Source of the DNA: Promethearchaeota archaeon
Lineage (GTDB): Archaea > Asgardarchaeota > Lokiarchaeia > Sigyniarchaeales > SOKP01
Assembly: GCA_016926735.1 (NCBI GenBank)
Contig: JAFGOA010000087.1
Location: 1-23,752 of the forward strand
Length of the DNA: 23,752 bases
Reading direction: 5' to 3'
Part shown: positions 6,301-23,405 of the stretch, in pieces
Position numbering within the stretch: position 1 is the first letter of the stretch
Layout: the number at the start of each line of letters is the position of its first letter
Notes under the pieces: generated by a model
The model's input: the letters and a program-made list of their open reading frames with translations, nothing else
Told to the model about the DNA's origin: nothing
The model's database searches: none
Program-made: the position numbers and the translations under genes

Positions 6301-7663
6301 AGTATTTAAAGTCTCTACAATAAATGCTGTACCAGCAGAGATGAGCGCCTACGATCATGATACCCTTATAGAACTTCCTTTTGGGGAATATGAAGCCTCT
6401 TTTAATGAACTAATACAGATGACAGTACAATATTATGATAGTTTAACACATTTCGTATATGAAGATGTTTTATTAACTTATGAATGGATTAATCTGGATC
6501 CTGTAATAATACAACCAGATCCAATAAACATTGGATATTACACATTTACGCTAAACACTTCAGATGCTTTAAGTACAGGACTAGAAAGTATAAAGATTAA
6601 AGCATATCTTGAAAACCACTCATTAATTGGAGGATATTTTGAAATTGAACTAACAATAATGGAGAGAAATACAAAATTAAATGGAGAAATTAATCCGCAA
6701 CCAATTAGTATGGAGATTTGGGTAGAAGATTTCCAATATTTTGTATATGAATATACTGATGCTGAAACAAGTCAATTACTTAGTGGGCTTAGTATAGCAA
6801 CGTTTAATTGGTATGAAATGGATAACTCAGGTTCTTTCCTAAACTCTAGTGGAGGAGGATCATTAATTTCAAATATTAATAAAACATATACATTAGATTT
6901 TAACACAGGATACCGAAATCCAGGATTTTATTTAATAACAGTATCATTGAAAAAGGATAACTATGAAAGAAAACAAATGACGCTCATAATTAATATAAAA
7001 TTAAGAGAAATGGAATATGATCTTACTGCTACAAATCTCAAAGGCAACCGAATAAATATTGCTCATGGAACTCAAATTGAATTTCAATTACAGATAAATG
7101 ATCTATCAAGAGGAGGTATATTACTTCAAAATGCTGATGTTTCTATAATTTTAAATCAAGTTAAATATAACTTTACTGAAACATCACCTGGAATTTATAT
7201 ATATAGTTTAAGTACAACTCAATTTGATGCTTTCTTTACATCTTATATTTTATCTGGTACATTAGAGATACAAGTTGCTAATTTTACATCAATAGAAATC
7301 GGTTTAACTGTTGTTATAAAGATGGAAGAAATTTTTCCAGGAATACCAACATTCTATTTTCTGTTGCTTATTTCTGCCATCATCGCAGTAACTGGAAGTT
7401 TAGTGGCATATAGAGTAATTCATTACGCTAGAATCCCAAATTATGTCAAAAAAATAATGAAAGTCCGAAAAGTAATAAAATCGAAGAAGAAATTTATAGA
7501 ACCTATAAAAGCACCTAGTAAGGAAGCAATGATTGTTTCTATGTTAGGAGATGAATGGAAACAGATTGGAATATCATTGAATAAGAAATTAGATGTTAAA
7601 GGGAAAGCAAAGCTAATAAAGAAAGAGAAAATAACAAAACAAGGAGAAGATGTGATGAAATAA
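3311..7663 (+). CDS. large membrane-anchored cell-surface glycoprotein (DUF2341-like N-terminal domain, Ig-like beta-rich repeats, C-terminal TM and basic cytoplasmic tail)
   Basis: 1450 aa. Basic N-terminus plus hydrophobic signal/TM. WWDHSYEYRMLINITN...DLDDIRI...TVWF...YLYFGNP resembles DUF2341. About 30 N-x-S/T sequons. C-terminal TM (FYFLLLISAIIAVTGSLVAY) followed by a Lys-rich tail. Confidence 0.8.
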   Translation: MKSIKRSKRITQIYIILSIIIISNIFFILSDGILNNSQTDLNNNEREEDPNPLSILKTNAFGEADWWDHSYEYRMLINITNPYPYDIENYGVNISFTYSNLLSENKIQSDLDDIRIIENDILKNYYVKKDYPSVGIATVWFDTNILANSIETDTYLYFGNPSAVNNASSDSSESFGWIKNGDFEIDISSATNFDPFGWSFSNNPVDTIVGLSQDYPDENTPIGDFVNCLIDDTTGDHRIGSGVYAYKWGVNTNTPAGSSVNDYAGTLFSYPFKVPTINGGDIYLKLFRNIRTYHFERKTLNPKNDEIQKDGYFIRVLNASDYNSDPDTHSDVDIQQSSYENYLEAYDGFARKTAFWSNEKDLIQLHDGSNFVHDDDIIKNTGSSQELTGYMNLDLTQYMGETLFFEIGAWGEETTEKNAFFQVDSLEFNYFISTSLNEIQARRSDITVVVRDIDGQFVPNAEVYLINNSATIPIVDSKISSTVDGSAEFIGILNGIYNFTVNYTMGSYEAEVYNSTKLNKILYEFDGKEFTVEIYVNLWTINFEFTDSDGIPFNYGYLKIKDDKAGTTLRTINLDSEGKATFRWLNTAYYYYELYYNNEDYADSPFLLNQSNYIYRSDYESVKEQQKVISVVNNNQAPSGESWYLINQYVYSNGSSSFNNRNIIQANITLTDMTDQLVNVSIYYIDEDNSTGIGDENLIYFEEDYGYGVYNDFISLDFLSIENTKLESENFNVYGLKIVIYGLNSSTCNGLVMVDSIETCHIFNKTELSRLNIRVINMNDLFPEGQPLNALIRVEDDSGTPLINLTSIAVRDGYAYGEKNAYDIPFWFFKDYNYTFRIDVLNYTDVEFNITSIGDSRWIPTGAIQSYEHYFNSTMMIEFNVIFETEFNISSYNTAIFNVTHTNQVQWGENLYYKLDFMYTEDDGETWEYVTNPGATCRLYVYLQGESEILLQRSFQNNGNGTFTLILNSSVLSAGYDSKTYTMMITGNKPGYPLPNEVFKVSTINAVPAEMSAYDHDTLIELPFGEYEASFNELIQMTVQYYDSLTHFVYEDVLLTYEWINLDPVIIQPDPINIGYYTFTLNTSDALSTGLESIKIKAYLENHSLIGGYFEIELTIMERNTKLNGEINPQPISMEIWVEDFQYFVYEYTDAETSQLLSGLSIATFNWYEMDNSGSFLNSSGGGSLISNINKTYTLDFNTGYRNPGFYLITVSLKKDNYERKQMTLIINIKLREMEYDLTATNLKGNRINIAHGTQIEFQLQINDLSRGGILLQNADVSIILNQVKYNFTETSPGIYIYSLSTTQFDAFFTSYILSGTLEIQVANFTSIEIGLTVVIKMEEIFPGIPTFYFLLLISAIIAVTGSLVAYRVIHYARIPNYVKKIMKVRKVIKSKKKFIEPIKAPSKEAMIVSMLGDEWKQIGISLNKKLDVKGKAKLIKKEKITKQGEDVMK

Positions 7664-8742
7664 TGCCAATTGGTTTAATAGTAATGAAATGGAGTAGTAG
7701 GTTAGGAGCCCAGATTTTAGAAAAATATCCAAAAGAAGTAGAAGTAACAGATGAGACATTAATGCAAATTTATGCGTCACATGAATATGGAGGAGAGGGA
7801 GGTATTGTAAGCTTTTTTGTGAGGTCATTAAACATTACATCTTTTTATGCAGGCCCAGAAAAATCTATCTATGTTATATTATTTTTAAATTTAGAAGAGG
7901 ATCCTGATGAATATGAAGATGCATTGATCAATGGATCAAGATTAATTCTTAAAAATTTAGAAAATGATGCTTATAAAGCTTTGATCCCATCTATATTTCA
8001 ACGAATATCTGCTTATCCAAAATACAATGATGAGCAAAAGTTAGCAATAATCTACAATGATGAAGTAAACAGATTAATTATTAATAGATTAAGAGAGGAA
8101 GGTGTATTTAGTAAATCTGAGCTCAAAATATGGTTAAAAGATGTATATAGAGGTCTTTTAACAGATATTGATAGTGTTTTAACTGAACTTATTAAAAAAG
8201 AAGTTATAAAAGAAAGTTCAGTAAAAGGTACACTATCTGAGATGATTTTTCTTTTAAATGATTTAATAATGATAAGGAGACCTCCCATTGATCTATATAA
8301 TAATCCCGTTGAAAATGGACTTCCAGAACAATTTATTGACGATTATAAAAGACAAATAACAACCTTCTTTGAATCATATCTCCCGAATGAAGACGATAAT
8401 CTGAAAGTATTAGAGATGATTCTTGATCCTGAAATATATCTTGTTTTAAGACTTCTCAGAAAAAACATGGCTTCAAGAAGTATGCTTGAGAAATTAAAAG
8501 CTCGTGGACTTGATGATATTGATGAGACTTTAAAAAAATTGTGGGATGCTAAAATGATTAGTGTTTTTCAAGATAAAAATCAAACAGAATACTATGCTTT
8601 AATAACAGATTTTTACATTAGGAAACTATACCCGAAATATATTCTGAATAGGATTATCCAACAATATGAGGTTAAATCCAAATCTAACGAGGTTCTTTTA
8701 GAATATTTAAATGTTCTTGAAAATAATTTTTCAAAAAATTAA
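7663..8742 (+). CDS. longin/uDENN-like N-terminal domain plus two probable winged-helix repeats
   Basis: 359 aa, start overlaps the upstream stop (TAATG). N-terminal W..RLGAQILEKYP resembles a uDENN/longin start. Two internal repeats: LIINRLREE...DIDSVLTELIKKEVIK and LVLRLLRKN...DIDETLKKLWDAKMIS. Confidence 0.6.
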   Translation: MPIGLIVMKWSSRLGAQILEKYPKEVEVTDETLMQIYASHEYGGEGGIVSFFVRSLNITSFYAGPEKSIYVILFLNLEEDPDEYEDALINGSRLILKNLENDAYKALIPSIFQRISAYPKYNDEQKLAIIYNDEVNRLIINRLREEGVFSKSELKIWLKDVYRGLLTDIDSVLTELIKKEVIKESSVKGTLSEMIFLLNDLIMIRRPPIDLYNNPVENGLPEQFIDDYKRQITTFFESYLPNEDDNLKVLEMILDPEIYLVLRLLRKNMASRSMLEKLKARGLDDIDETLKKLWDAKMISVFQDKNQTEYYALITDFYIRKLYPKYILNRIIQQYEVKSKSNEVLLEYLNVLENNFSKN

Positions 8743-8749
8743 TTTTTTA

Positions 8750-9805
8750 TTATTTTTTTTCTATTTTATTTTTATTCATCAATTCTTTCATTTCTAAAGA
8801 TTTTTCATAAAATTGTTTGCTTAAATTATCATCTCCTAATTCTAAACATAAATCAGAAATTTGTTCATATAAATGTAAGGCTTCAGGTAAAGCTCCTCTT
8901 TCTATTGCTAGTTGTGCTTCACCAATTAAAATATCTCTTTCAAAAAGAGGTTTTAATAGAGATATATTTGTATTGATCTCTAAAATATCGGAAATTATAA
9001 GAATCATTTTTTCTCTGTTATTTGGATCAATAGCAACCATAGAATACGTTTTTAACCCTATTATTTCTTCAATCTTTTGAATACTTAATGCACCATCTAA
9101 ATCTTGTTTATTTCCAATTACGGCACTATTTGCATAAGGTGCTTCAGATTTTATAATTTCCAAGAAATATCGACTTTTTTCTACATTCTCTAGAGTTGAA
9201 TCCGTAATAATTAATACAGCATCGCTTCCTTCTATAAAATTATTCCATAAATAACTAAATTGTTCTTGACCAGCGAAATCCCATAATTTAAAAATAAGTT
9301 TACCTATCTTAATTGTTGCAATCTTTCCTGTGATGGTTGGAATATGTTGCATGGGAATTTCTTGATCTTTAATTAATTGTGTTGTAGTCGTTTTTCCAAC
9401 CCCAGAAAATCCAACTAATGATATTTTAGCACCTAAACTTTTATGAAGTCCATCGATTCTTGAATCAATGATTTCTTTAAATCCCTCTTTATCACCACTC
9501 TCAATAAGGTCAAAGTAGAAGTCTGAGAAATCTTTTTTTAATTTTTTCAATTCATTAAAAACCAAGTCTACTTCATCTGCTATTCCAGTGACTAAAATAA
9601 TTATCAGATCTTTTTCTTTATCTAATATGTAAAATATTTTTTGTTTAAAGATTATATTATCTCCTAAATCATCTGTAGCTCCAAATTCAAGATCTCTCTT
9701 AAGATTTTTCAAAAATTCATTGAGTATTTCTTTTGATATTGCTTTAGCAAAGATTTGTTCGTATATTATTTCATTATTCTTTAAAATATATATTTGTCTT
9801 AGCAT
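8750..9805 (-). CDS. longin/roadblock-fused Arf/Rab-like small GTPase with C-terminal helical hairpin
   Basis: G1 GFSGVGKT, G2 PTIT, G3 WDFAGQ and G4 NKQD. About 120-aa N-terminal longin-like domain and a TPR/MIT-like C-terminus. Confidence 0.88.
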   Translation of the reverse strand: MLRQIYILKNNEIIYEQIFAKAISKEILNEFLKNLKRDLEFGATDDLGDNIIFKQKIFYILDKEKDLIIILVTGIADEVDLVFNELKKLKKDFSDFYFDLIESGDKEGFKEIIDSRIDGLHKSLGAKISLVGFSGVGKTTTTQLIKDQEIPMQHIPTITGKIATIKIGKLIFKLWDFAGQEQFSYLWNNFIEGSDAVLIITDSTLENVEKSRYFLEIIKSEAPYANSAVIGNKQDLDGALSIQKIEEIIGLKTYSMVAIDPNNREKMILIISDILEINTNISLLKPLFERDILIGEAQLAIERGALPEALHLYEQISDLCLELGDDNLSKQFYEKSLEMKELMNKNKIEKK

Positions 9806-12381: not shown

Positions 12382-13314
12382 TCATTTTTCTTGAGCTTCT
12401 ATCTCAGATAAAATAACTTTCCAGCTTTTATCAATTCCTTCTTGAAGTTTAATTAATTGTTGTTCGGAAACTGTTCGAAATCTTTTTTGTTTGGAAAGAT
12501 ATTCGATTAATGGAATTCTTTTACTTGGATCTACATATTTTTTACTTGCTTTTGAAATTGTTTTAACGCCATTTTCAACTTCATACAAAATCCATAATCC
12601 AGATTTTATAGCTAATCTTGCCATTTCAATAGTATCTTCAGCTCCATATCCCCATCCAGGAGGACAAGGAGCTAAGATGTGAATATATTTACATCCTTCG
12701 ATATCTTTGGCTTTTTTAAATTTTTCATATAAGTCTAATGGTTCAGATACACTACAAGTAGCTATATAAGGAATTTCATGTGCTTCCATAATTCGAGGTA
12801 GATTCTTTTTATATCGTTGTTTTCCGAATGGAGTTGTTGTAGTAATTGCAGAATGAGGTGTTGAGCTGCTTCTTTGAATTCCAGTATTCATATATGCTTC
12901 ATTATCATAACATACATATAAAATATTTGAATTTCTCTCAGCAGCACCACTTAGTGCTTGTATACCAATATCTGTTGTTCCACCATCCCCCGCAAATACT
13001 AATGTAGTCATTTTATCCCATCCTTGATTTGGAAATCTATATGCTTTAGCTTTAAATGCCGCATCAACTCCAGTAGCAGCAGAAGCCCCAGCAGCAAAAG
13101 CCATATTTATAAATGGGAAATTCGGAGCTGTTTTAGGCCATAGACCAATAACAACATTTAAACACGATGCAGGGGTAACTAAAGCTGTTTTAGGACCTAA
13201 AGCTTTCATTGCCCATCTTAGAGCAATTTCAAGACCACATCCAGCACAACATGAGTTACCTGGAAGAAAATATTCTTCACATGCTTCATTTAACGTTTCT
13301 TTTATTGTAACCAT
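12382..13314 (-). CDS. porB: pyruvate/2-ketoisovalerate:ferredoxin oxidoreductase beta subunit
   Basis: CAGCG, TPP-binding GDGG...YDNEAYMNTGIQRS and PCPPGW motifs. Confidence 0.92.
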   Translation of the reverse strand: MVTIKETLNEACEEYFLPGNSCCAGCGLEIALRWAMKALGPKTALVTPASCLNVVIGLWPKTAPNFPFINMAFAAGASAATGVDAAFKAKAYRFPNQGWDKMTTLVFAGDGGTTDIGIQALSGAAERNSNILYVCYDNEAYMNTGIQRSSSTPHSAITTTTPFGKQRYKKNLPRIMEAHEIPYIATCSVSEPLDLYEKFKKAKDIEGCKYIHILAPCPPGWGYGAEDTIEMARLAIKSGLWILYEVENGVKTISKASKKYVDPSKRIPLIEYLSKQKRFRTVSEQQLIKLQEGIDKSWKVILSEIEAQEK

Positions 13315-14571
13315 TTATTTCACCTCTAATATTCCATCCCAGAGAGTACCATGAATTAGATTATTTGGTAATTCTCCAGTTTCTTTTATTTTAATTAGGG
13401 TCTTTAATTCTTCTTTTTGTTGTACTAAAGTTACCTCGCGCCCTCCTATTCCTGCCATCATTGGTAATACTTTAGTAGTTATACCTGTATCATAAAGACA
13501 GGATAAAACATCACCACTTACAGGACCACCTGTGGGGGAGCCAAATGCAGTAGCCCGATCCATAACACCAAGAACTTCTACTTTTTTTGCTATTTTTCGA
13601 ATATCTTCTGTAGGAAATGGACGATAATGTCTTAATTTTACCATTCCAACTTTATATCCTTCTTCACGTAGTTCCTCAACTGCTTGTTCCATTTGTAAGG
13701 CTAAATCACCATAAATTATAATTCCAACATCTGCATCATCCATATTGAATTCTTCAATTAGTCCATTACCATAACTTCTTCCAAAGGTTTTCTCAAACTC
13801 TTTTGAAGCTATTTTTATTTTATCTTTAGTTTTCATAAGAGTATCTTGAATTTTCATCCTGAATTCACTATAAAATCCAGAAGGCATTATAAGATTGCCA
13901 TGCATCATAGGTCTTTCAGGATCAAGAAATATTTGAGGCCATCCCTTTTCATCAGGTAATGGTGGAAGGTATTGATCTACAAGATCTTGATCTTCAATTA
14001 TAACTGGTTTTGATGTATGAGAAAGAATAAAACCCCCATACGCAACAAATTTGGGTAATAATACATCATAATCCTCACAGACTTTATAAGACATTAAAAT
14101 TTCATCATATATTTCTTGATGCGTAGCACAAAACGCACTCATCCAACCAGTATCACGAGCATTTATTACATCTGAAAAGTCAGCCCATATATTCCAAGGA
14201 GGAGCTGCACCTCTGCTTGCAATAGCTGTGACAATAGGTAATCTTGTTCCAGCAGCCCAATGAATCATTTCATTCATATAAAATAAACCTTGTCCAGATG
14301 TAGCTGTAAAGGTTCTCGTTCCAGCTATACTCGCTCCAATAACAGAAGCCATTACTGAATGTTCACTCTCTACTTTAATATATTGAGTTCCTGGCATTTC
14401 TCCTCCATCAACAAATTCAGATAATTTTTCAACTACAGTAGTTTGGGGAGTAATAGGATATGCACTAATCATTTGGACTCTTGCAGATTTTGCAGCATAA
14501 GCAGCTGCAACATTCCCTTTAATAATTTTTGTTTCTCTTTTTTGTATAATATTATTCGTTTTACTTATCAT
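13315..14571 (-). CDS. porA: pyruvate/2-ketoisovalerate:ferredoxin oxidoreductase alpha subunit
   Basis: AYPITPQT, VESEHS, RTFTATSGQGL, RDTGW and RPFP motifs. ATG at 14571 (GTG at 14580 is the alternative). Confidence 0.92.
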   Translation of the reverse strand: MISKTNNIIQKRETKIIKGNVAAAYAAKSARVQMISAYPITPQTTVVEKLSEFVDGGEMPGTQYIKVESEHSVMASVIGASIAGTRTFTATSGQGLFYMNEMIHWAAGTRLPIVTAIASRGAAPPWNIWADFSDVINARDTGWMSAFCATHQEIYDEILMSYKVCEDYDVLLPKFVAYGGFILSHTSKPVIIEDQDLVDQYLPPLPDEKGWPQIFLDPERPMMHGNLIMPSGFYSEFRMKIQDTLMKTKDKIKIASKEFEKTFGRSYGNGLIEEFNMDDADVGIIIYGDLALQMEQAVEELREEGYKVGMVKLRHYRPFPTEDIRKIAKKVEVLGVMDRATAFGSPTGGPVSGDVLSCLYDTGITTKVLPMMAGIGGREVTLVQQKEELKTLIKIKETGELPNNLIHGTLWDGILEVK

Positions 14572-14908
14572 CTGATTCACTCTCTCTAATCATCTTAATT
14601 TTATGAGTTGGACACTCTTTTGCGCATATTCCACATCCTTTACAATATATTAAATCAATTTCAAAAGACCCATTCTCATTTTGTTTGATAACTCCTTCAG
14701 GACAATACATCCAACATAATCCGCATCTATTACATCCTTCAAGTATTACAGGTCGAAATGTTCTCCAATCTCCTGTAGTTCCAATACTTCCTTCAATTGG
14801 TAAGGAAATTGGAATTGGAGGTAGTTCTTTCCAATTTTTATATTCCTGAACTTTAGGTCGTTTTTCTTTAGATTCATTTATTTTTTTCCATTCTTCTGAT
14901 TCACTCAT
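14561..14908 (-). CDS. porD: 2-oxoacid:ferredoxin oxidoreductase delta subunit (2x[4Fe-4S])
   Basis: TGDWRTFRP, CNRCGLCWMYCP and CKGCGICAKECP. Confidence 0.92.
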   Translation of the reverse strand: MSESEEWKKINESKEKRPKVQEYKNWKELPPIPISLPIEGSIGTTGDWRTFRPVILEGCNRCGLCWMYCPEGVIKQNENGSFEIDLIYCKGCGICAKECPTHKIKMIRESESDDK

Positions 14909-14910
14909 GA

Positions 14911-15483
14911 TTACTCCTCCTTAACAGAATTGAAAGCATCTTTAGCTACTTTCATATTTTTTGATAATCTTTTTTCTCCAAATTCATCTCTTATGATGTT
15001 TTCCATAACTTCAAGATCATAAAATCCTGTTATTTTTCCAAATGCTCCAAGCATAGGAATATTTAAAATAGGACCACTTGACAACATAAAAGAATTATCA
15101 ATGCAAATCTTTGTTGCATCAACTAGATAAATCTTAATATTTTTGGGTAGATTAGTATTATCTATGGGTTTATTACTATTTATAAGGAGAATTGTTCCTT
15201 CCTTTATCGAATTTCGAATATTGGGAATTTCCAAAAGAGAGGTGTCAAATATTAACATATAATTAGGATTAACGACACTATCATATGTTTTTATCATTTT
15301 ATTTTTTGAAATTTTAGTAAATGCCCAAATAGGAGCACCTCTTCTCTCTGCACCGATAATAGGGATAGCAATAGCATCTTTAAACCCTTTATCATAAGCA
15401 AATTGAGCCAAAAGTTGACTTGCAGTTACAGCAGTTTGTCCTCCCCTCGCTGCAAATGAAATCTCTATTATTCCGTTTGCCAT
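14911..15483 (-). CDS. porG: 2-oxoacid:ferredoxin oxidoreductase gamma subunit
   Basis: EI.F.ARGGQ.AVTA, GAERRGAP, VDATKI and NIPMLGA motifs. ATG at 15483 preferred over TTG at 15498. Confidence 0.9.
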   Translation of the reverse strand: MANGIIEISFAARGGQTAVTASQLLAQFAYDKGFKDAIAIPIIGAERRGAPIWAFTKISKNKMIKTYDSVVNPNYMLIFDTSLLEIPNIRNSIKEGTILLINSNKPIDNTNLPKNIKIYLVDATKICIDNSFMLSSGPILNIPMLGAFGKITGFYDLEVMENIIRDEFGEKRLSKNMKVAKDAFNSVKEE

Positions 15484-15536
15484 CACTTTTTTTTCCAACT
15501 TTTTCTTTTTGATATTTGTTATTTTAATTCATCATT

Positions 15537-15576
15537 GCTACCAAAAAACTCAAAAAACCAGAAATTTTTTGGTCGC
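15537..15576 (-). promoter_or_regulatory. hairpin / U-tract element (candidate attenuator) between leader ORF and porG
   Basis: Sense strand reads GCGACCAAAAAATTTCTGGTTTTTTGAGTTTTTTGGTAGC. ACCAAAAAA pairs with TTTTTTGGT, there are two U6 tracts, and an alternative short ACCA/TGGT pairing exists. Confidence 0.55.
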
Positions 15577-15577
15577 T

Positions 15578-15682
15578 CTATAAAAGTAAAATTACTACTA
15601 CGTGTAATAATAAAATAATTACAGATAACAATAATACTGAGTTTAAAGTCACTAAACGATTGTTATTTGCTATTTTGTTCAT
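15578..15682 (-). CDS. Ile/Leu/Val-rich leader peptide (34 aa)
   Basis: Manually translated as MNKIANNNRLVTLNSVLLLSVIILLLHVVVILLL*. 21 of 34 residues are I/L/V. Same strand as, and just upstream of, porG. Confidence 0.65.
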   Translation of the reverse strand: MNKIANNNRLVTLNSVLLLSVIILLLHVVVILLL

Positions 15683-15976
15683 TGATAATTCAAACCTTAT
15701 ATTATTGTTAAAAAATATTAAAAGTCTAATACAATAAAATTCCGATTATATTAAAAATTTACTATAAAAGATTATAAATCGTAATTTTAAATCATAAAAA
15801 TAGTTGAAACAAAAAAAAAATCACTATTAATTATTTAAAGTAGATAATAATTTGAAATAAAGAAAAAAAGTGTAAAAATACAGATGTTCTTTCTTTATAA
15901 AAATTTTTAACTATTCTTTAACTTTTGATAAATAGTTGTAGCAATTTATGTTCAAAGAGTCTATGAAATTTAAATT

Positions 15977-16546
15977 ATGTCCAAATTCATTAGTGAACCA
16001 GAGGAAGAGTTTAGTTTTAATTGCCCCTCTTGTAAAGATGGTCATTTAAAAATCATTAAAAATCTTTATGATCTTCCAGATAAAGATAAAATGTTGATTA
16101 TTAAATTTGAATGTGATAATTGTAATTATCATCAAAATGATATTATTCCATATACTACACGTATAGAACCCGGGAAATTAACTTTAAAGATAACAAATGA
16201 AGAAGATTTAAAGTCAAAAGTATATAGATCTCCAACTGGTAAATTGGAAATACCTGAATTAGAATTATCTGTAGAACCTGGACCAAGTGCAAAATTTTAT
16301 TATACTAATATTCAAGGTATATTATTTAGATTCGAAAATGCTATAGAAATACATCTTAATAATGAAGAATTATCTAAAGATGAAAAGTTAGAAGTTGTAA
16401 AGATTCTTAATAACTTAAAAGAAGCCATAAATGGTAATTATCCCTTTACATTAATTATTGAAGATCATTCAGGAGGTAGTTATATTATTCCTACAGATGA
16501 TTCCAAACTTTCTTACACAAAATTAAATATTTCTGATAATGTATAA
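15977..16546 (+). CDS. ZPR1-type zinc-finger protein
   Basis: CPSC...FECDNCNY, EEDLKSKVYRS, IPELEL.VEPG, TNIQGIL and FTLIIEDHSGGSYI are typical of archaeal ZPR1. Confidence 0.9.
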   Translation: MSKFISEPEEEFSFNCPSCKDGHLKIIKNLYDLPDKDKMLIIKFECDNCNYHQNDIIPYTTRIEPGKLTLKITNEEDLKSKVYRSPTGKLEIPELELSVEPGPSAKFYYTNIQGILFRFENAIEIHLNNEELSKDEKLEVVKILNNLKEAINGNYPFTLIIEDHSGGSYIIPTDDSKLSYTKLNISDNV

Positions 16547-16644: not shown

Positions 16645-17861
16645 ATGGTAGATAATATAAAACGGGTTGGAATTCTAACAGGGGGCGGAGATTCGATAAA
16701 GATTTTCCTTTACGATCCGCATACTGCCCTGGTTTAAATAGTGTTATTTATGGCATTATGTTAAAAGCCTTTGATTCGAATGTTAAATGTGTTGGTATTC
16801 TTAAAGGATGGAAAGGTTTTATGGAAAATCTTACAATACCCCTTAACATTGAAGAACATGATGATCTTCATACAATAGGAGGAACTTTTTTATATACTAG
16901 CAGAACAAATCCATTTGAAGAATTACAAAAAGTAACATCGAAAGAAGAGAAGGAAAAAATAAAGGAAGAAATAGCTAAAAAAATGGCAAAACAATTTGAA
17001 CTTTTAGATATTGATGCCTTAATTGCTATTGGAGGAGATGATACTCTTGGTGTTGCAAATTCCATGCATAAATACGGAAATGTTAACGTTGTAGGATGCC
17101 CTAAAACAATCGATAATGATTTAGCGGGAACAGATTATACTTTTGGTTTTTGGAGTGCAGTTCAATTAGCATCTAATACTATAGATAATCTTACAACAAC
17201 AGCACGATCTCATCAAAGAATATTTGTTGTTGAAATTATGGGAAGAGATGCAGGATTTTTAACAATGTATAGTGGAATTTCAGGTGGAGCAGATATTATT
17301 CTTGTTCCTGAGACTCCTTTTAGCTTTCAAAATCATATAGTCGATGTTTTAAAAAGAAGGGTTAATGCAGGTCATAAGTATCACATAATTGCTTGTTCTG
17401 AAGGCGCTTATCCTTCAGATGAATCGTTAGAAAAGGATTTTAAAACAATATCAAAAGAAACTATTAATCAATTGCCAAAAGATGTATTTGGTAATCCTTT
17501 GCTAACTAGACTAAATATATCACAAATTTTAACAAAAGAAATAAATCTTAGAGAGGACTTAAAAGCAGAATTTAAGAAAAATGATACAAATTTTGAATGT
17601 AGGGATGTTGTATTAGGCCATACAATGAGAGCAGGTACTCCAAACTCTTTTGATAGAATATTAGGATTACGATTAGGTCTTGCTGCAATGAAACTAGTAT
17701 TAAATAATGATTTTGGTAAAATGGTTGCTCTTAAAGGAACTAATATTAAGGGTGTTCCTCTTTCTGAAGGATCGAAAAAGAAATATATTAATCCAGATGA
17801 AGATGAAGTAGAATTAAGAAATCTTTTGGTTAAGACAAGATACAAATCAAGAGAAAATTAA
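16645..17861 (+). CDS. pfp: PfkA-family phosphofructokinase, PPi-type signature; join(16645..16690,16723..17861), 394 aa after removal of a 32-nt insertion
   Basis: Exon 1 gives MVDNIKRVGILTGGG(D) and exon 2 continues CPGLNSVIYGIMLK. Motifs GGDDT, PKTIDND, TFGF, VEIMGRDAG and LGHTMRAG are present. GGDD plus PKTIDND is the PPi-utilising signature. Confidence 0.88.
16691..16722 (+). other. candidate 32-nt bulge-helix-bulge (tRNA-type) intron in the pfp mRNA
   Basis: Central helix GCGG(16685-88)/CCGC(16717-20), 3-nt bulges AGA(16689-91) and AUA(16721-23), internal stem UCG-UAAAG/CUUUA-CGA. Cutting after the second nt of each bulge yields G|AC TGC CCT = D-C-P in frame. Confidence 0.75.
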
Positions 17862-17945: not shown

Positions 17946-18212
17946 TTATTGAATTATATCAATTATATTTTCAAAAATTTTTCCAAAAGTAATGATCTCA
18001 TTTATAGAAGCTCTAAACGCAGTAATATCGTTACTTTCAATGTAGAATTTAAGATTATTCTCTCCTTCTTTTTCCATAGTTAATTTAGATCTTTTAGAAT
18101 TAATTTTATTAAATTCAGGTAAAAAAGTATTGAAAGAGATATCTCTTATTTCTGATGTTTTAAAATAAAAGTTTACAGAGGATTTAATTGAATAATCATC
18201 TTGTTTATACAT
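17946..18212 (-). CDS. pcc1: KEOPS complex subunit Pcc1
   Basis: 88 aa with RSKL...LKFYIESNDITAFRASIN motif, at its canonical position after rpl37ae. Confidence 0.85.
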   Translation of the reverse strand: MYKQDDYSIKSSVNFYFKTSEIRDISFNTFLPEFNKINSKRSKLTMEKEGENNLKFYIESNDITAFRASINEIITFGKIFENIIDIIQ

Positions 18213-18502
18213 TATTTTTCAACTAGATCTAACTCTTTTTGTTTTCTTTTTGAAACTCTAAAAGATTCAGCTCCTCTTGGAGTTTCGATAGAATATGCTC
18301 CACCTGTAAATTTAGCTTTACATTTTTTACAATACCAAATGCCAGTTGATAATCTTTGAACTGATCCTTTAGTTTCGCATTTGGGGCATTTTATATTATT
18401 ACTTTTCATTTTCTCAAGGATCATACGAGTTCTTTTTCTTACTACTGATCCATATCTTGCTCCATATTTTCCTGTAATTCCGACCTTTTTAGTCTTACCC
18501 AT
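18212..18502 (-). CDS. rpl37ae: 50S ribosomal protein L37Ae (eL43)
   Basis: KKVGITGKYGARYG, CPKC, GIWYCKKC and FTGGAY. Confidence 0.97.
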   Translation of the reverse strand: MGKTKKVGITGKYGARYGSVVRKRTRMILEKMKSNNIKCPKCETKGSVQRLSTGIWYCKKCKAKFTGGAYSIETPRGAESFRVSKRKQKELDLVEK

Positions 18503-18643
18503 ATATAATCACATTTGATTCTTCTAAATTTACTTAAATAATTAAAAACAATATAAAATAAAAATTTTAGCCAAAAATATAAATAATATTAAGTTATTTT
18601 GGACAAAAGACTTATTCTATCATAAAATCAAAAAAAAAGATAA

Positions 18644-19471
18644 TTAGGTTGAATTCTTTACATATTGCCAAATGTTTAATTCTTCTCTTAGATTTTTTGC
18701 AATTTCTAATGCTTTTTCACCAAGCATTTTTATCTCTTCAATAGTAAAGGTTGCTATCCCACTTTTTTGGATACTTGTAATCTCTTTTTCTGTGACTGAT
18801 AATGTAATTCTTCCATCACTTACTAATTCTTCTGGAAGACTTGGATCTAAGAATATAATATCGTCAATCTTTCCAAAAGTAATTGCCAACGGAAGTTCAT
18901 TTATTAATTCTTTTCCATTGAGATATTTTCCAGTCCATCTGGGTACTTCATCAACCCATTCTCCTTTTGGAATACGGGACGATATTAAAGCCGCTAAGGC
19001 ACTCACACCTCCACAATCAATCATATTTCCTCCATGATTGATCACATACATATCAACAAACAATATATAAACTGCTTTTTCTTCTTTTATACATAATTTT
19101 TGAGTTTGTACACAATCAGCATGTCTTATTCCTCTATCAACAACTCTTGCTAATTCAATTGATTCTTCATCGGGAGGACCTCTCTCGAATAAGGGGGAAG
19201 CTAAAGGTAATAATTCAGCCATAATAGTGCAAACACCTTCATTTGGTAAATCGGGAAAAGGTTCACCAATATCATATTTTACTCCTGTGATTATTCTAGT
19301 ATCACCTAAAGTAACATCAGCAGACCCTTCTGCTGAAGATATTGTATCTGTTTTAATACAAAAAGGTCTATAATCCCAAAGTCCTCTTCCATCAATTCTT
19401 TCTCCTTTCTTTAAATTGTTAGTGATATAATTCTTTTCAATTGTTGATATTACTCGTTTAATATCCATCAT
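18644..19471 (-). CDS. rrp42: exosome complex component Rrp42
   Basis: RIDGRG, AEGSA.V.LG.T, PFPD.PNEG, GPPDEESIELARVVDRGIR. Confidence 0.96.
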   Translation of the reverse strand: MMDIKRVISTIEKNYITNNLKKGERIDGRGLWDYRPFCIKTDTISSAEGSADVTLGDTRIITGVKYDIGEPFPDLPNEGVCTIMAELLPLASPLFERGPPDEESIELARVVDRGIRHADCVQTQKLCIKEEKAVYILFVDMYVINHGGNMIDCGGVSALAALISSRIPKGEWVDEVPRWTGKYLNGKELINELPLAITFGKIDDIIFLDPSLPEELVSDGRITLSVTEKEITSIQKSGIATFTIEEIKMLGEKALEIAKNLREELNIWQYVKNST

Positions 19472-19488
19472 TTTTTATTTTTACCTCT

Positions 19489-20241
19489 TTATTGTTGTAT
19501 TCCCTCTTGAATCTGAATATACTTCGATTTTAATGCATCCAATTGCATGTGGTATATTTTTTCTAAAGCATCTTTTAACATATCGAGAGACTTAGTCATT
19601 TCTTCTTGATTCATTTTTCCATCAAATTGTAATAAAGATATTTCATTATTGAACCATGTTATAGCACAAGGCATATCAGAATCACCAGCTTTATCTTCAA
19701 TTCCAGATAAATCCGTTATAAGTTGTCCATCTACTTTTCCTACAGCACATGAAGTAACTAAACTTCGCATAGGTATGCCCGCATCTGCAAGTGCTAACGC
19801 TGCAACTGTGGTACTTGCGCATCGTGTACCTCCATCAGCATCAATTACTTCAATAAATATTTCAAAACTTGTTCCAGGGTATAGTTCAAGAAATAAAACA
19901 GGTTCGAGACATTCTGAAATAATCATAGAAATTTCTTTTTCTCTTCGACCAGGAGCAGGACGTTTTCTTTCAAATACAGAATATGTAGCCATCCTATAGA
20001 ATACTCTTAAAATCCCTTTGTCAGGTTTTGCTAAATGATGAGGATGTACCTCTCTAGGACCATACACTGACGCAAATATTTTATTGTTTCCCCATTCTAT
20101 ATAGGCACTTCCATCAGCATTCTTTATTACATTAACTTCCATTTTTATTGGACGTAGGTCTGTTAAACCTCTTCCATCTAAACGTAATCCATCATCACGC
20201 AATAACTTTTTGGGATATTCATCTTGAATTAATAATGTCAT
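19489..20241 (-). CDS. rrp41: exosome complex exonuclease Rrp41
   Basis: RLDGR, ADGSAYIEWGNNK, YGPRE, RREKEIS, ADGGTRCA and catalytic ED..GDSDMP. Confidence 0.97.
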   Translation of the reverse strand: MTLLIQDEYPKKLLRDDGLRLDGRGLTDLRPIKMEVNVIKNADGSAYIEWGNNKIFASVYGPREVHPHHLAKPDKGILRVFYRMATYSVFERKRPAPGRREKEISMIISECLEPVLFLELYPGTSFEIFIEVIDADGGTRCASTTVAALALADAGIPMRSLVTSCAVGKVDGQLITDLSGIEDKAGDSDMPCAITWFNNEISLLQFDGKMNQEEMTKSLDMLKDALEKIYHMQLDALKSKYIQIQEGIQQ

Positions 20242-21029
20242 TATTTAATACCTCTTCTTTCTATTTCATTTTTTATAAATCCTTCCATTCTATCTGTTAA
20301 ACCCGTTGTATGGGCCTCATTTTCTATTTTATAAATAGCTTCAATTAATAGTCGTTCATGTTCAATATCAAAACCTTTTAACCAAATACGACCATTTTGT
20401 GCGACAAAAATATTACAATTAGTTAAATTTTTCAACATTTTTATCATAGAACCATTACGTCCTATTATTCTTGGCACTTTTTGAGAATCAATTTGTATAA
20501 TTATTCCCCCCATCTTTTTACCAAGATATTTACCAGCTAAGGTTATTTCAGGAGAATTTAATCGATCTGCTGCAATTACTTTTCCAATAATTGCATCACC
20601 TATAAAAAGCTTTTCAGGAATTTCTGATTCTCTTGAATTTCCACGCATCCTTATCTTAGGATTCCTTTTTACAGTATTTTTAATCTTAAGAATTCCTGAA
20701 TATTTTGCATTAATATCACAAACATATTTTACGGGGTTCTTATCTAAGACGATCCCGATTATTTTATCTCCAATGTGGGGGGTATAAAAACCTCTTAATG
20801 GTATTACATTAATATAATTCTTTTTAATTTGTTTCAAACCAATTATAACAGAGATAATCTTATCTCCTTTTTTATTTAAGATCGCACCTCTACCAGGTAT
20901 ATAATTTTCTGTATCATCAGTTAATACTTCACCCGGTGCAACAATTTCACGTAGAGTTTCTTCATCTTCAAACTCATCATTTTGTTCTTGCTCTTCCTCT
21001 TCTTGTTCAAGTTCTTCGTTATTTTCCAT
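20241..21029 (-). CDS. rrp4: exosome RNA-binding cap protein Rrp4 (S1+KH)
   Basis: IV.PGEVL, VIPLRG.Y.P..GD.IIG, KVPRIIGRNGSMI, QNGRIW and AHTTGLT. ATG at 21029, with an acidic N-terminal extension. Confidence 0.95.
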   Translation of the reverse strand: MENNEELEQEEEEQEQNDEFEDEETLREIVAPGEVLTDDTENYIPGRGAILNKKGDKIISVIIGLKQIKKNYINVIPLRGFYTPHIGDKIIGIVLDKNPVKYVCDINAKYSGILKIKNTVKRNPKIRMRGNSRESEIPEKLFIGDAIIGKVIAADRLNSPEITLAGKYLGKKMGGIIIQIDSQKVPRIIGRNGSMIKMLKNLTNCNIFVAQNGRIWLKGFDIEHERLLIEAIYKIENEAHTTGLTDRMEGFIKNEIERRGIK

Positions 21030-21215
21030 AAAAATACACAATCATAAAATAAATAATAATAAACAAAATTTTCTTTTTTTTTCAAACTTAAAATAATTAA
21101 TCATTGACATAATAAAATTTTAATGAAATTTGGAGTTAAGAATCAACTTTTATTTCTAAAAAATCTAAAGGAAAAAATTTTTGAGAAAATTCAAAAATTT
21201 TATTTTTTTTTTATT

Positions 21216-22007
21216 CTAAGATTTTACTAATTTTGTTTGAACTCTTCCATGAGTAAGTTTATTAAGTTTATCTATTAATTCCATTTGTAATCCTGCAGGC
21301 ATATTTACTACAGAAACCCAAGATCCATCAGATTGCCATTCTTCCTTTTTTATTTGAGCATATTGAGCCACAATATTATAACCTTTTGCTGTAAAAGATG
21401 TAGGAATTTTAATTGCCATCTCAATCTGTTCCATTTTTATTGGTAGAATACTCCTAATTTGCTTTACAATATCATCAACTTGCTCTTCAGCAGACTTCAT
21501 TAGATGTATTTTGATATTTAATTCTTCAATAGCTTTTTCTATTCTTTCAGGGGGATGTGGCTTTTTATTCTGAGGATTAATTGCATTTTTTGATATTATA
21601 TTTATAATTTTTTTGAGTTTCTTCTCAATTTCCTCTTCACGTTGTGTCTTTGTCCAATGAAATTCTCCTTCTAAAAGGATATGTGCAGCTATTTCTTTTC
21701 CGTCTGTGGTCTCAAATATTGCTTCCATATCACCATCAGTGGCTTTTTTACCTCTCTTTAAATCCTCAAATACAATAAAACTTTGAAAAATCAATTCTAA
21801 AGGTATATTAGGATCTTTTAATACTTCTTGAATAGTTAATCGAGATTTTCCTTTTCCTTCTTTTAGTCTTCTATTGATTTCTTCTCGAATATATTTGTTT
21901 ATACTCCATGCTTTATCGGGATCCATAAGCATCTCGAATATCCTACCACTTTTTTCAATTCTCCCGATAATATTATCTCCCAAATCAATTCTTGCGCGAT
22001 CAATCAT
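21216..22007 (-). CDS. sdo1: ribosome maturation factor SBDS/Sdo1
   Basis: FE.L.DP, KKGK-like/F.TTD, INPQ..KPHPPERIEKA and EEWQSDGSW motifs. Canonical position between psmA and rrp4. Confidence 0.95.
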   Translation of the reverse strand: MIDRARIDLGDNIIGRIEKSGRIFEMLMDPDKAWSINKYIREEINRRLKEGKGKSRLTIQEVLKDPNIPLELIFQSFIVFEDLKRGKKATDGDMEAIFETTDGKEIAAHILLEGEFHWTKTQREEEIEKKLKKIINIISKNAINPQNKKPHPPERIEKAIEELNIKIHLMKSAEEQVDDIVKQIRSILPIKMEQIEMAIKIPTSFTAKGYNIVAQYAQIKKEEWQSDGSWVSVVNMPAGLQMELIDKLNKLTHGRVQTKLVKS

Positions 22008-22138
22008 AGCATTAACACAATTTTTTTTTTTTTATTTTCAAGATCGATACTTTTTTTTTTTAAAACTTACTTAAATGAGCAATTATAGATAAATAATAAG
22101 TATAATATTTCAAATTATTTTTTTTTTTTGAAATATTT

Positions 22139-22858
22139 TTATATTTTACTCAATAACTCTTTCTTTTCATCATTATTTAGTAGAATGAATTGTTTTTGAT
22201 CCTTTAAAATATATGCTACATCACAGGTTTTTTCATTAAGGTTTTCATCTCCCATAATCTCTTTCAACGCTTTCAATGGTAATAACTTTAAATCATCATC
22301 ACTTATATCTTCTTTATAATTTTCTTCTAAATAGGTTCGAGCTTCATTTGCTCCAGATCCTATAGCAAATGCTCTATATCCCCATAATGCACCAGAAGGA
22401 TCTGTAAGGAATAAAGCCGTTTCACCATCAGGGTCAATGCCAGCAATTAAAAATGAAACACCAAAAGGTCTAACACCTGCATTTTGGGTATATGCTTGTA
22501 ATATTTCACATATCTCTAATGTTAATTCTTTCACATTTATTTTTTCATCATAATTTAAAAGATGAATTTGTGCTTGTACACGGCCTTTGTCAATTAAAAC
22601 ACGAGCATCAGCAGTTAATCCCGCAATAGCAACACCAATATGATTATCAATTTTAAATATCTTTTCAGAACCAATATTTTCTTGAAGATCAGAGCTTTTC
22701 TTTTCTACAGCGAATACCACAGAATTTTTATTTCTCGCACATATTGCTGTAGTTCCCCTTCTAACAGCTTCGATAGCATATTCTACTTGAAAAAGTCTTC
22801 CTTCAGGTGAAAATTGGGTGATAGCCATATCATAACCGCGTCCAGCTTGTTGGAACAT
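22139..22858 (-). CDS. psmA: 20S proteasome alpha subunit
   Basis: GYD.AIT.FSPEGRLFQVEYA, GLTADARVL, RPFGVS.LIAG, TDPSG and AIGSG. Confidence 0.97.
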   Translation of the reverse strand: MFQQAGRGYDMAITQFSPEGRLFQVEYAIEAVRRGTTAICARNKNSVVFAVEKKSSDLQENIGSEKIFKIDNHIGVAIAGLTADARVLIDKGRVQAQIHLLNYDEKINVKELTLEICEILQAYTQNAGVRPFGVSFLIAGIDPDGETALFLTDPSGALWGYRAFAIGSGANEARTYLEENYKEDISDDDLKLLPLKALKEIMGDENLNEKTCDVAYILKDQKQFILLNNDEKKELLSKI

Positions 22859-23021
22859 TTATCTTATGCACCTTTAAATTTTATTTAAGCAATATTTTCT
22901 AATTAAAAAGAATAATAATTGGTTCAATATATATTTTTTTTAAATATATTATAAAATCGTTTTAGAAAACTAAAGCTCATTTTTAGAGGATATATCATAA
23001 TTCTAAGCTTTAAAACAAAAA

Positions 23022-23405
23022 TCATTGCCATGCTATTTTATTAACAAAAATAGACCATTCCAATAAAATTAATCCTGTTTCTTGAGCAGTATGAATAATT
23101 AGATAATCCCCTTCCTTTGTGATAGATCCCGCAATATTTCCTTTTCCTCCAATTATATTTTTAGCAGCCAATTGAATATCATCATTTTTAATAATAGCAT
23201 ATCTATTACCTAAAAAATTTAATGATGGTTTTTTATTTTTCCAGGCATCTAATAATGCTTTACTCTCTTCATTAGTTATTGGAAATTCTTTTGATTTAAA
23301 AATTACTTCTCCTTCATTATTCAATAAGATTACTTCTTCTACTCCTTCATATTCATTGAGATCTTCAACGATCTGTTTAAATTTATCTACATCCATAATA
23401 ATCAC
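23022..23405 (-). CDS. second profilin-like / roadblock-profilin fold protein
   Basis: 127 aa. VILLNNEGEVI...EESKALLDAW...SLNFLGNRYAIIK.D...LAAKN..GKG matches the profilin pattern (l.f.G.kY.i..). Start may be a few codons downstream. Confidence 0.65.
   Translation of the reverse strand: MIIMDVDKFKQIVEDLNEYEGVEEVILLNNEGEVIFKSKEFPITNEESKALLDAWKNKKPSLNFLGNRYAIIKNDDIQLAAKNIIGGKGNIAGSITKEGDYLIIHTAQETGLILLEWSIFVNKIAWQ

Follow-up and report, generated by a model that had tools for sequence, protein, structure and literature searches.

A conserved leader with an isoleucine-, leucine- and valine-rich reading frame and three RNA helices in front of a 2-oxoacid:ferredoxin oxidoreductase operon in a Promethearchaeota family

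Results and Discussion

Leader reading frame and downstream operon

The DNA analyzed here, referred to as the window, is a stretch of 23,752 nucleotides (nt) from a Promethearchaeota archaeon (contig JAFGOA010000087.1, positions 1 to 23,752 of the forward strand). It contains a short open reading frame (ORF) in front of an operon for a 2-oxoacid:ferredoxin oxidoreductase. The ORF is located on the minus strand (15682..15578) and comprises 34 codons from an ATG start to a TAG stop, with the translation MNKIANNNRLVTLNSVLLLSVIILLLHVVVILLL. Among its 19 C-terminal residues 17 are isoleucine, leucine or valine (I/L/V); the other two are a serine and a histidine, and F, A, G and M are absent. The stop codon ends at position 15578 and the ATG of porG lies at 15483, which leaves 94 nt between them. 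An earlier note on this DNA had described the ORF as a branched-chain leader peptide of this very composition, situated about 95 nt before porG, and both composition and distance were confirmed. The surrounding spacer of 493 nt has a G+C content of 19% (26% in the genome of 3.88 Mb) and is bordered by porG on one side and by a divergent gene for a ZPR1-type zinc-finger protein on the other. From the comparisons described below, the ORF appears to be the coding core of a conserved leader of ~185 nt rather than a lone peptide gene. The leader further comprises a box resembling a transcription factor B recognition element with a TATA element (BRE/TATA-like box) and three RNA helices, P1, P2 and P3.

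When all 7436 ATG ORFs of 25–45 codons in the whole genome were ranked by the number of I/L/V in the last 19 residues, this ORF came first with 17. The runners-up were two ORFs with 15 such residues, both lying within long ORFs in another frame; they are frame artefacts inside genes. The I/L/V richness of the leader ORF is beyond chance expectation. A further leader before ilv or leu genes, also considered in the earlier note, did not turn up among the 7436 short ORFs of this genome.

The genes behind the leader encode a four-subunit enzyme of the pyruvate/2-ketoisovalerate family in the order gamma-delta-alpha-beta, as judged by Pfam and NCBIfam. They occupy positions 12382..15483 of the minus strand: porG (15483–14911), porD (14908–14561), porA (14580–13315) and porB (13314–12382). 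The NCBIfam subfamily models TIGR02175 and TIGR02179 scored above their cut-offs. The equivalog models for the pyruvate (POR) and the 2-ketoisovalerate (VOR) enzymes gave nearly equal scores, all of them below cut-off. For the alpha subunit we obtained 395.6 bits with PorA_Arch (cut-off 550), 361.5 bits with the VOR alpha model PRK08366 (646) and 355.1 bits with the POR alpha model PRK08367 (625). The corresponding comparison gave 386.2 against 382.7 for the beta subunit and 95.7 against 94.1 for the delta subunit. The VOR-like character that the earlier note had deduced from the leader is thus not borne out by these models. The genome contains one four-subunit enzyme of the POR/VOR type together with two other POR_N genes.

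A second PorG-like gene of a sister genome was tried as a discriminator between POR and VOR and was dropped, because it is a lone gamma-like gene. This gene (191 residues, PF01558; locus L073, G018:C5:120500-126000) lies beside a gene for a multi-PAS histidine kinase of 1326 residues and is not part of a four-subunit operon.

Conservation and maintenance of the frame

A PorG search of 41 relatives yielded 30 loci, 24 at the family level and six from other families of the order. A sense upstream ORF (uORF) of 30–38 codons, ending 88–112 nt before porG with the residues ..VVVIL(LL) ahead of the stop, was present at 14 of the 24 family-level loci and at none of the six order-level porG loci. The covariance model R1 was built from these 14 seed loci. 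Applied to the 30 porG loci, it scored the seeds at 98–146 bits and everything else at 26 bits or less. Over 121 genomes of the family R1 gave 40 matches in 34 genomes, covering nine of 13 genera, and 33 of these 40 leader copies precede porG. Over the order, a match was found in 24 of 101 family genomes and in none of the 19 genomes of three other families. The genome studied here has a single copy according to both nhmmer and R1.

In all 40 matches the frame stays open between the aligned start and the stop beside P3. The earlier note had proposed looking before porG in relatives for I/L/V-rich uORFs of divergent nucleotide sequence, and such uORFs are indeed kept in all 40 matches from 34 genomes. 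The start codon is ATG in 34 of them, TTG in four and GTG in one; the remaining match, L069, starts at a TTG, and an ATG in the same frame follows ten codons further in, level with the other starts. The N-terminal halves of the peptides are unrelated and unalignable between genera. Codons 2–15 lie in the unalignable loop of P1, beyond the constraint of the covariance model, and in this stretch the 26 non-seed matches contain 0, 29 and 47 stop codons in the three frames, the uORF frame being the first (0, 27 and 15 in the seed set). This absence of in-frame stops is far from chance; the genomes are kin and not independent, and they represent about ten separate lineages. That the ORF is a chance product of an A/T-rich spacer, in which NTN and AAN codons are common at 19% G+C, is refuted by this conservation: the ORF tops 7436 short ORFs, the frame is kept in 40 copies from 34 genomes, and the base pairs described below covary.

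Some loci depart from the regular arrangement. L069 (G024:C148, element 1459–1652) and the porG locus L017 (G024:C209) belong to the same genome and lie on different contigs. Behind the leader of L069 come some 400 nt and a repeat-like ORF (VRLPMDSGNRV.. twice) that extends up to the contig end; the region upstream of porG at L017 is unrelated to the leader and more GC-rich. This split may reflect an insertion or an assembly break. Upstream of porG in genera without the element, the loci L010, L012, L015 and L019 contain remnant-like pieces. L010 shows a degenerate I-rich ORF (ending in ..KLIIITIIIINSL before the stop) together with a stretch TTTTATTGGTTGTGC resembling the 3' arm of P3, and L019 contains a short hairpin, AAAACAATAA-caat-ATTATTGTTTT, that resembles a P1 from which the loop has been removed. 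These pieces suggest loss of the element rather than primary absence.

Peptide composition and codon use

For comparison we collected 922 membrane-helix-like windows of 19 residues from long ORFs of the genome. None of them reaches 17 I/L/V; the maximum of 16 occurs twice. The tails of the leaders in front of por operons consist of 37.5% L, 21.5% V, 18.8% I, 3.3% F, 0.7% A and 0.8% G, compared with 20.5% L, 7.7% V, 30% I, 12.9% F, 4.3% A and 4.4% G in the membrane-helix-like windows. F, A and G are therefore depleted 4–6 fold and V is enriched about 3 fold, and the contrast with real transmembrane helices that the earlier note had pointed out holds. In the por-type tails (30 copies), I/L/V codons account for 78% of the final 20 codons. 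T at codon position 2 is kept over 15–20 codons of the hydrophobic half although the nucleotides change. The polar residue in the middle of the tail varies (H/R/Q/D/E or none) and corresponds to the loop or the closing codon of P2. In the tails valine is encoded by GTA in 119 cases and by GTG in six, whereas the genes of the genome use GTT for 46% and GTA for 39% of their valines.

The composition bears on the idea that the ORF is a separate gene whose product, a small hydrophobic single-pass peptide, has a function of its own. Such a gene would be transcribed from a promoter of its own, P3 would form its 3' end or terminator, and the proximity to porG would be mere synteny. This idea would explain the polar, often basic N-terminus followed by a hydrophobic tail of about 20 residues, the conserved promoter-like box upstream and the strong hairpin right behind the stop codon; in addition, an A/T-rich, TATA-like run may lie between P3 and the following gene. 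The length of the hydrophobic segment fits a single-pass membrane protein. Its composition, however, differs from membrane-helix-like segments in the way described above, and amino-acid identity is conserved at none of the positions, not even at the polar one in mid-helix. Moreover, the element precedes two operons for soluble cytoplasmic enzymes at a fixed short distance and on the same strand. We regard an independent peptide gene as distinctly unlikely.

RNA helices P1, P2 and P3

RNAalifold predicted no pairs on three alignments (A1, A2 and A4; MAFFT or model-fitted). For this reason we named the structure of P1 and P3 from single-sequence folds and subsequently counted the pairs in alignments. 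P1 is a long-range helix that was found in the minimum free energy fold of 14 out of 14 orthologues. Its 5' arm (UAACAAUAAUAU..GGUUUGAA, 15689..15710, minus strand) is part of the 5' untranslated region (UTR) directly before the uORF start (-28 to -7), and its 3' arm (..UUUAAAC..UAUUAUUGUUA, 15626..15647, minus strand) is built up by uORF codons about 12–19. The start codon is thereby located inside an enclosed loop. Compensatory changes in P1 are visible, for example, in L004, L005, L016, L018, L021 and L022.

The hairpin P2 (15591..15611, minus strand) has the sequence UUAUUAUU-ACACG-UAGUAGUA and lies within the I/L/V codons, where it corresponds to LLL-H-VVV. In other genera it reads UUGUAC..GUACAA or CUCGUA..UACGAG. 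A comparison with shuffled sequences resulted in a mean z of -1.74 for the 40 leaders, with values below -1 in 27 and below -2 in 16 of them; the support for P2 is moderate.

P3 (15537..15576, minus strand) is a hairpin of the form GC-ACCAAAAAAUUU / loop / GAGUUUUUUGGU-GC with a run of six U in its 3' arm; its pairs, too, show compensatory changes. In all 14 sequences it comprises 12–16 base pairs, has a folding energy of -12.6 to -20.9 kcal/mol and begins at or right behind the stop codon. In the window it begins 4 nt past the first base of the stop codon, and in 39 of the 40 leaders the first paired base is 0–9 nt away from that base. In the copies of one genus (L059, L060 and L068) the stop codon is shifted 15 nt upstream. 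The U run in the 3' arm has a length of at least four in 37 leaders and of at least five in 30. The sequence of P3 is conserved across genera, unlike that of a generic terminator, which again argues against the independent peptide gene.

On the structure-blind MAFFT alignment A2, 75.8% of the cells of P1 and P3 are paired, compared with 44–52% for slid partners. Double changes occur in twelve pairs, and no more than 2 of 500 shuffles attain the observed values. On the 40 matches, in an alignment fitted to the covariance model, which favours structure, 83.2% of the cells are paired (36–52% for slid partners), 21 of 34 pairs show double changes, and none of 500 shuffles reaches these values. P1 and P3 are supported by compensatory base changes. 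A search of Rfam 15 with the region 15300–16100 on both strands gave no match up to E = 10.

These helices could also belong to a structured non-coding leader, i.e. a protein- or metabolite-binding, processing or stability RNA that controls the operons while the frame is tolerated or only serves to unfold the RNA. The I/L/V residues would then simply follow from U-rich stems of the GUA/UAC type in a region of 20% G+C. P1 and P3 hold most of the sequence conservation and covary, the LLL-x-VVV motif is the P2 hairpin itself, nearly all valine codons are GTA, and the uORF has no canonical ribosome-binding site, all of which is in line with such an RNA. On the other hand, the frame is open in all 40 matches across an unalignable stretch of 14 codons in which the other frames collect 29 and 47 stops, the start codon is found at the same aligned place, and the stop is fixed beside P3. 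Likewise, T persists at codon position 2 despite nucleotide change over 15–20 codons, isoleucine codons are lost specifically in the copies before a second operon (see below), and no Rfam family matches. In our view a purely non-coding leader is unlikely.

The helix enclosing the translation start, together with the size and hydrophobicity of the peptide, is also reminiscent of a type I toxin-antitoxin-like module, in which the mRNA of a toxic hydrophobic peptide is closed by pairing with its 5' UTR. Against such a module, the element is present as a single copy in this genome, and across nine genera it keeps the same synteny and orientation in front of two metabolic operons. No conserved antisense feature was seen; reverse-strand matches of R1 (26 bits or less) reflect the palindromic arms. 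This explanation is highly improbable.

Second leader copies in front of a B12 mutase operon

R1 identified second leader copies (L061-L066) with 71–75 bits in six genomes from two sister genera; the element of L062, for example, lies at 3868–4042 on the minus strand. All six lie 31–153 nt in front of a three-gene operon and share its strand. The operon encodes the large subunit of an acyl-CoA mutase (544 residues; TIGR00641, 788 bits), a B12-binding subunit (133 residues) and a MeaB-like GTPase (331 residues). The closest structures to the mutase are those of 2-hydroxyisobutyryl-CoA mutase (561 bits), methylmalonyl-CoA mutases (451–491 bits) and IcmF (330 bits). The NCBIfam equivalog models for MCM and IcmF remained below cut-off. 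The mutase has F and Q (rqFsgf, iaQksw) at the sites occupied by Y and R (rqYagf, mvRnty) in methylmalonyl-CoA mutases from the PDB. HcmA has I and Q at the same sites in addition to TD, whereas the mutase has VA instead of TD and lacks the I. We take the F/Q pair, at the two positions for the substrate carboxylate, to be a signature of isobutyryl-CoA mutases. Judged by these residues, the enzyme looks isobutyryl-CoA-mutase-like. According to PMC10481361, IcmF interconverts isobutyryl-CoA with n-butyryl-CoA and pivalyl-CoA with isovaleryl-CoA. Its substrates are acyl-CoAs derived from valine and leucine.

The tails of the mutase leaders contain 48% L, 25% V and 1.7% I. Within the same six genomes, isoleucine occupies 2 of 120 tail positions in the mutase leaders versus 16 of 120 in the por leaders. 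The codon mix of the leader follows the operon that it serves, which is the behaviour of a leader peptide and unlike that of membrane peptides. Since six paralogous copies precede an operon for an isobutyryl-CoA-mutase-like enzyme, the link of the element to branched-chain amino acids is independently supported.

Promoter-like box, spacer and initiation motifs

Alignment A1 contains a conserved upstream block (C)CGAAAATTTTTAATATTATC, to which the BRE/TATA-like box AAATTTTTAATA at 15749..15760 (minus strand), preceded by TATAGT, belongs. Allowing at most one mismatch, the 12-mer of the box is found in 28 of the 40 leaders, mostly 75–88 nt before the uORF start, and all six mutase-linked leaders carry it exactly. 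It resembles the archaeal BRE plus TATA consensus. We infer from its sequence and position that the box is the promoter of the leader, in which case the transcription start site would lie about 45–50 nt before the ATG of the uORF and upstream of P1. A genome-wide positional scan for the promoter-like box showed no sharp peak. Three metatranscriptome contig sets from the same study returned nothing for the locus, which counts neither for nor against a transcript.

Between P3 and porG there is an A-rich spacer (15484..15536, minus strand) with conserved columns in A1 that include AAAUCAAAAAGAAAAAGUUGGAA. It may contain a second promoter and/or the translation initiation region of porG. In most genera a motif (A)AAGTTGGAA occurs both 4–5 nt before the uORF start and 8–10 nt before the porG start (15689–15697 and 15484–15510 of the window, minus strand). 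In this genome GTTGG is represented 0.57x before genes, compared with 3.3–4.5x for GGAGG, GGTGA, AGGTG and GAGGT, and the ribosome-binding motif is of the GGAGGTGA type. GTTGGAA was considered as a ribosome-binding site of the lineage and was rejected for lack of enrichment in front of genes. This assembly does not contain the 16S gene.

Other genes in the window

The divergent neighbour of the leader (15977–16546, plus strand) encodes a ZPR1-type zinc-finger/jelly-roll protein and is followed by a gene of the phosphofructokinase family (16758–17861, plus strand). Antisense ORF fragments suggest the same ZPR1-type neighbour at several related loci. Positions 17946–23405 of the minus strand are occupied by an archaeal exosome/proteasome cluster with genes for proteasome alpha, SBDS, Rrp4, a pair of Rrp41- and Rrp42-like RNase PH proteins, L37ae and Pcc1, and a profilin-like gene (PF00235, 26.3 bits) comes after it. 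The cluster together with the profilin-like gene fits an Asgard archaeon. On the other side of the por operon, a protein of 351 residues (8750–9805, minus strand) contains an Arf/Ras-type small GTPase domain behind an N-terminal extension of 120 residues. Beside it lie two ORFs of 1450 and 359 residues (3311–7663 and 7663–8742, plus strand) with no Pfam match.

Comparison with known systems

Leader-peptide control is a textbook bacterial device and depends on ribosomes closely trailing RNA polymerase. Bacterial leader peptides for branched-chain amino acids are known from the ilvGMEDA (IlvL), ilvBN (IvbL) and leu operons of E. coli, and actinobacterial ilvBNC operons possess an attenuator with three hairpins. 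The Asgard leader resembles these systems in being a short ORF in an operon leader with a variable N-terminus and a run of I/L/V codons as its distal half, in the RNA hairpins that overlap and follow the ORF, and in a codon content that is specific for the operon (I+L+V versus L+V). The ilvBNC attenuator of C. glutamicum is treated in PMC11857589. Unlike the bacterial leaders, the Asgard leader occurs in an archaeal host and precedes operons for a 2-oxoacid:ferredoxin oxidoreductase and a B12 mutase instead of ilv/leu biosynthesis. It further differs in the long-range helix that encloses the start codon, in that neither a U-tailed terminator nor a conserved antiterminator alternative was found, and probably in an inverted logic.

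In E. coli, pyrBI senses UTP via polymerase pausing and tnaC senses free tryptophan in the exit tunnel; tna is a catabolic operon that is switched on by abundance of its own amino acid. As in these two cases, a ribosome translating up to or into a hairpin would decide whether transcription continues, whereas the cue in the Asgard leader would be the decoding speed of I/L/V codons. Archaeal transcription termination relies on U runs and factor-dependent cleavage and is not known to use Rho.

According to a preprint (bioRxiv 10.1101/834739), mycobacterial polycysteine short ORFs, which are leaderless, act as cysteine-responsive attenuators. They share with the Asgard leader the enrichment of one kind of codon, the position at the head of an operon of matching metabolism, the discovery by conservation and the lack of a textbook terminator/antiterminator. 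They differ in being bacterial and leaderless and in serving biosynthetic or assimilatory operons. A full-text literature search for archaeal leaders with amino-acid codon runs found no example.

Interpretation and proposed mechanism

The leader element is real, conserved and so far undescribed, with no match in Rfam and no report in the literature searched. We favour, with moderate confidence, the reading that it is a translated regulatory element reporting the supply of isoleucine-, leucine- and valine-tRNA to branched-chain catabolic operons. Most probably it works like a bacterial leader peptide, but the mutually exclusive terminator and antiterminator that define the classical attenuator were not found: we see three consecutive conserved hairpins and no conserved alternative. 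The proposal of a leader peptide made in the earlier note therefore stands as far as the conserved I/L/V-rich uORF is concerned and is not supported for a classical attenuator, as no conserved alternative pairing was seen and P3 has no U tail. Translation of the ORF, amino-acid sensing and the direction of control are what we infer from these features.

Several observations weigh against a sensing leader. Folds of the nascent RNA that left out the 3' arm of P3 showed no conserved antiterminator-type pairing. P3 has no U tail past its stem and is consequently not a bacterial-type terminator; a scan for bacterial-type promoters and terminators, which did no better than chance, did not report P3. 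Its internal U run could act as a signal for archaeal termination, but three of the 40 copies have a short run or none. The almost exclusive use of GTA for valine, unlike in genes, indicates that part of the 'amino-acid' codon pattern is imposed by RNA pairing. The uORF has no canonical Shine-Dalgarno sequence, and the conserved GTTGGAA ahead of it is not the ribosome-binding motif of the genome. The A/T-rich spacer after P3 could harbour a separate promoter for porG or the mutase gene, in which case the uORF unit would be a small gene of its own; at L061 we read a TATA-like run about 26 nt before the mutase ATG. The element is missing from two deeply sampled genera (R1, 0 of 41 and 0 of 5 genomes), and in a third R1 finds it in 4 of 41 genomes. 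The mutase gene of the genome studied here has an upstream spacer of 153 nt in which neither nhmmer nor R1 detects a leader. Finally, the NCBIfam scores separate neither POR nor VOR, both assignments failing alike, and as the only four-subunit enzyme of its type in the genome the oxidoreductase may have to serve pyruvate, too.

A pairing between the tail of the ORF and the 5' arm of P3 was tried as an anti-P3 structure and discarded as weak and not conserved. A simpler scheme, in which the ribosome itself melts P3, may apply.

Based on the sensing leader and this simpler scheme we propose the following mechanism. Transcription would start at the conserved BRE/TATA-like promoter, about 45–50 nt before the uORF. 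The 5' UTR would pair with uORF codons about 14–19 to form P1, which places the start codon in a closed loop, and a ribosome would initiate within this loop. While decoding the I/L/V run, it would melt the 3' arm of P1 as well as P2. As I/L/V codons make up about 78% of the final 20, the speed of its transit would depend on charged Ile-, Leu- and Val-tRNA. Having reached the stop codon, the ribosome would cover and melt the 5' arm of P3 with its footprint, whereas a ribosome stalled 5–15 codons before the stop would leave P3 free to fold. The switch would thus be the position of the ribosome relative to P3, on which it would depend whether P3 with its U run can form in the wake of RNA polymerase. 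The output could be transcriptional, either through the U run of P3 or through lost coupling followed by factor-dependent termination. Alternatively, it could be translational, through access to the start region of porG. Both types of operon look catabolic, which makes expression at plentiful I/L/V, and shut-off upon a stall in the I/L/V run, the likelier logic. Regulation may then run opposite to that of ilv attenuators.

Significance

We hold the balance about even for the wider claim that the element senses amino acids through the ribosome and is the first leader of this kind to be described in Archaea. According to this claim, one Promethearchaeota (Asgard) family possesses a small regulon based on a translated I/L/V-codon leader and its three RNA helices. 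This regulon would couple the charging of branched-chain tRNAs to enzymes of branched-chain fermentation, a VOR-type oxidoreductase and an isobutyryl-CoA mutase, with a codon mix tuned to the substrates (I+L+V versus L+V). The 40 natural variants, the two operon contexts and the clear anatomy of the leader make translation-coupled attenuation in archaea directly testable. Even if sensing fails, the element is a new class of conserved structured RNA without a match in Rfam.

If the claim is true, the leader would serve to annotate which substrates a POR/VOR-type enzyme and a B12 mutase use in uncultured Asgard archaea, and it would point to a regulated fermentation of branched-chain amino acids. 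It would also mean that the prokaryotes most closely related to eukaryotes control genes by way of functional transcription-translation coupling.

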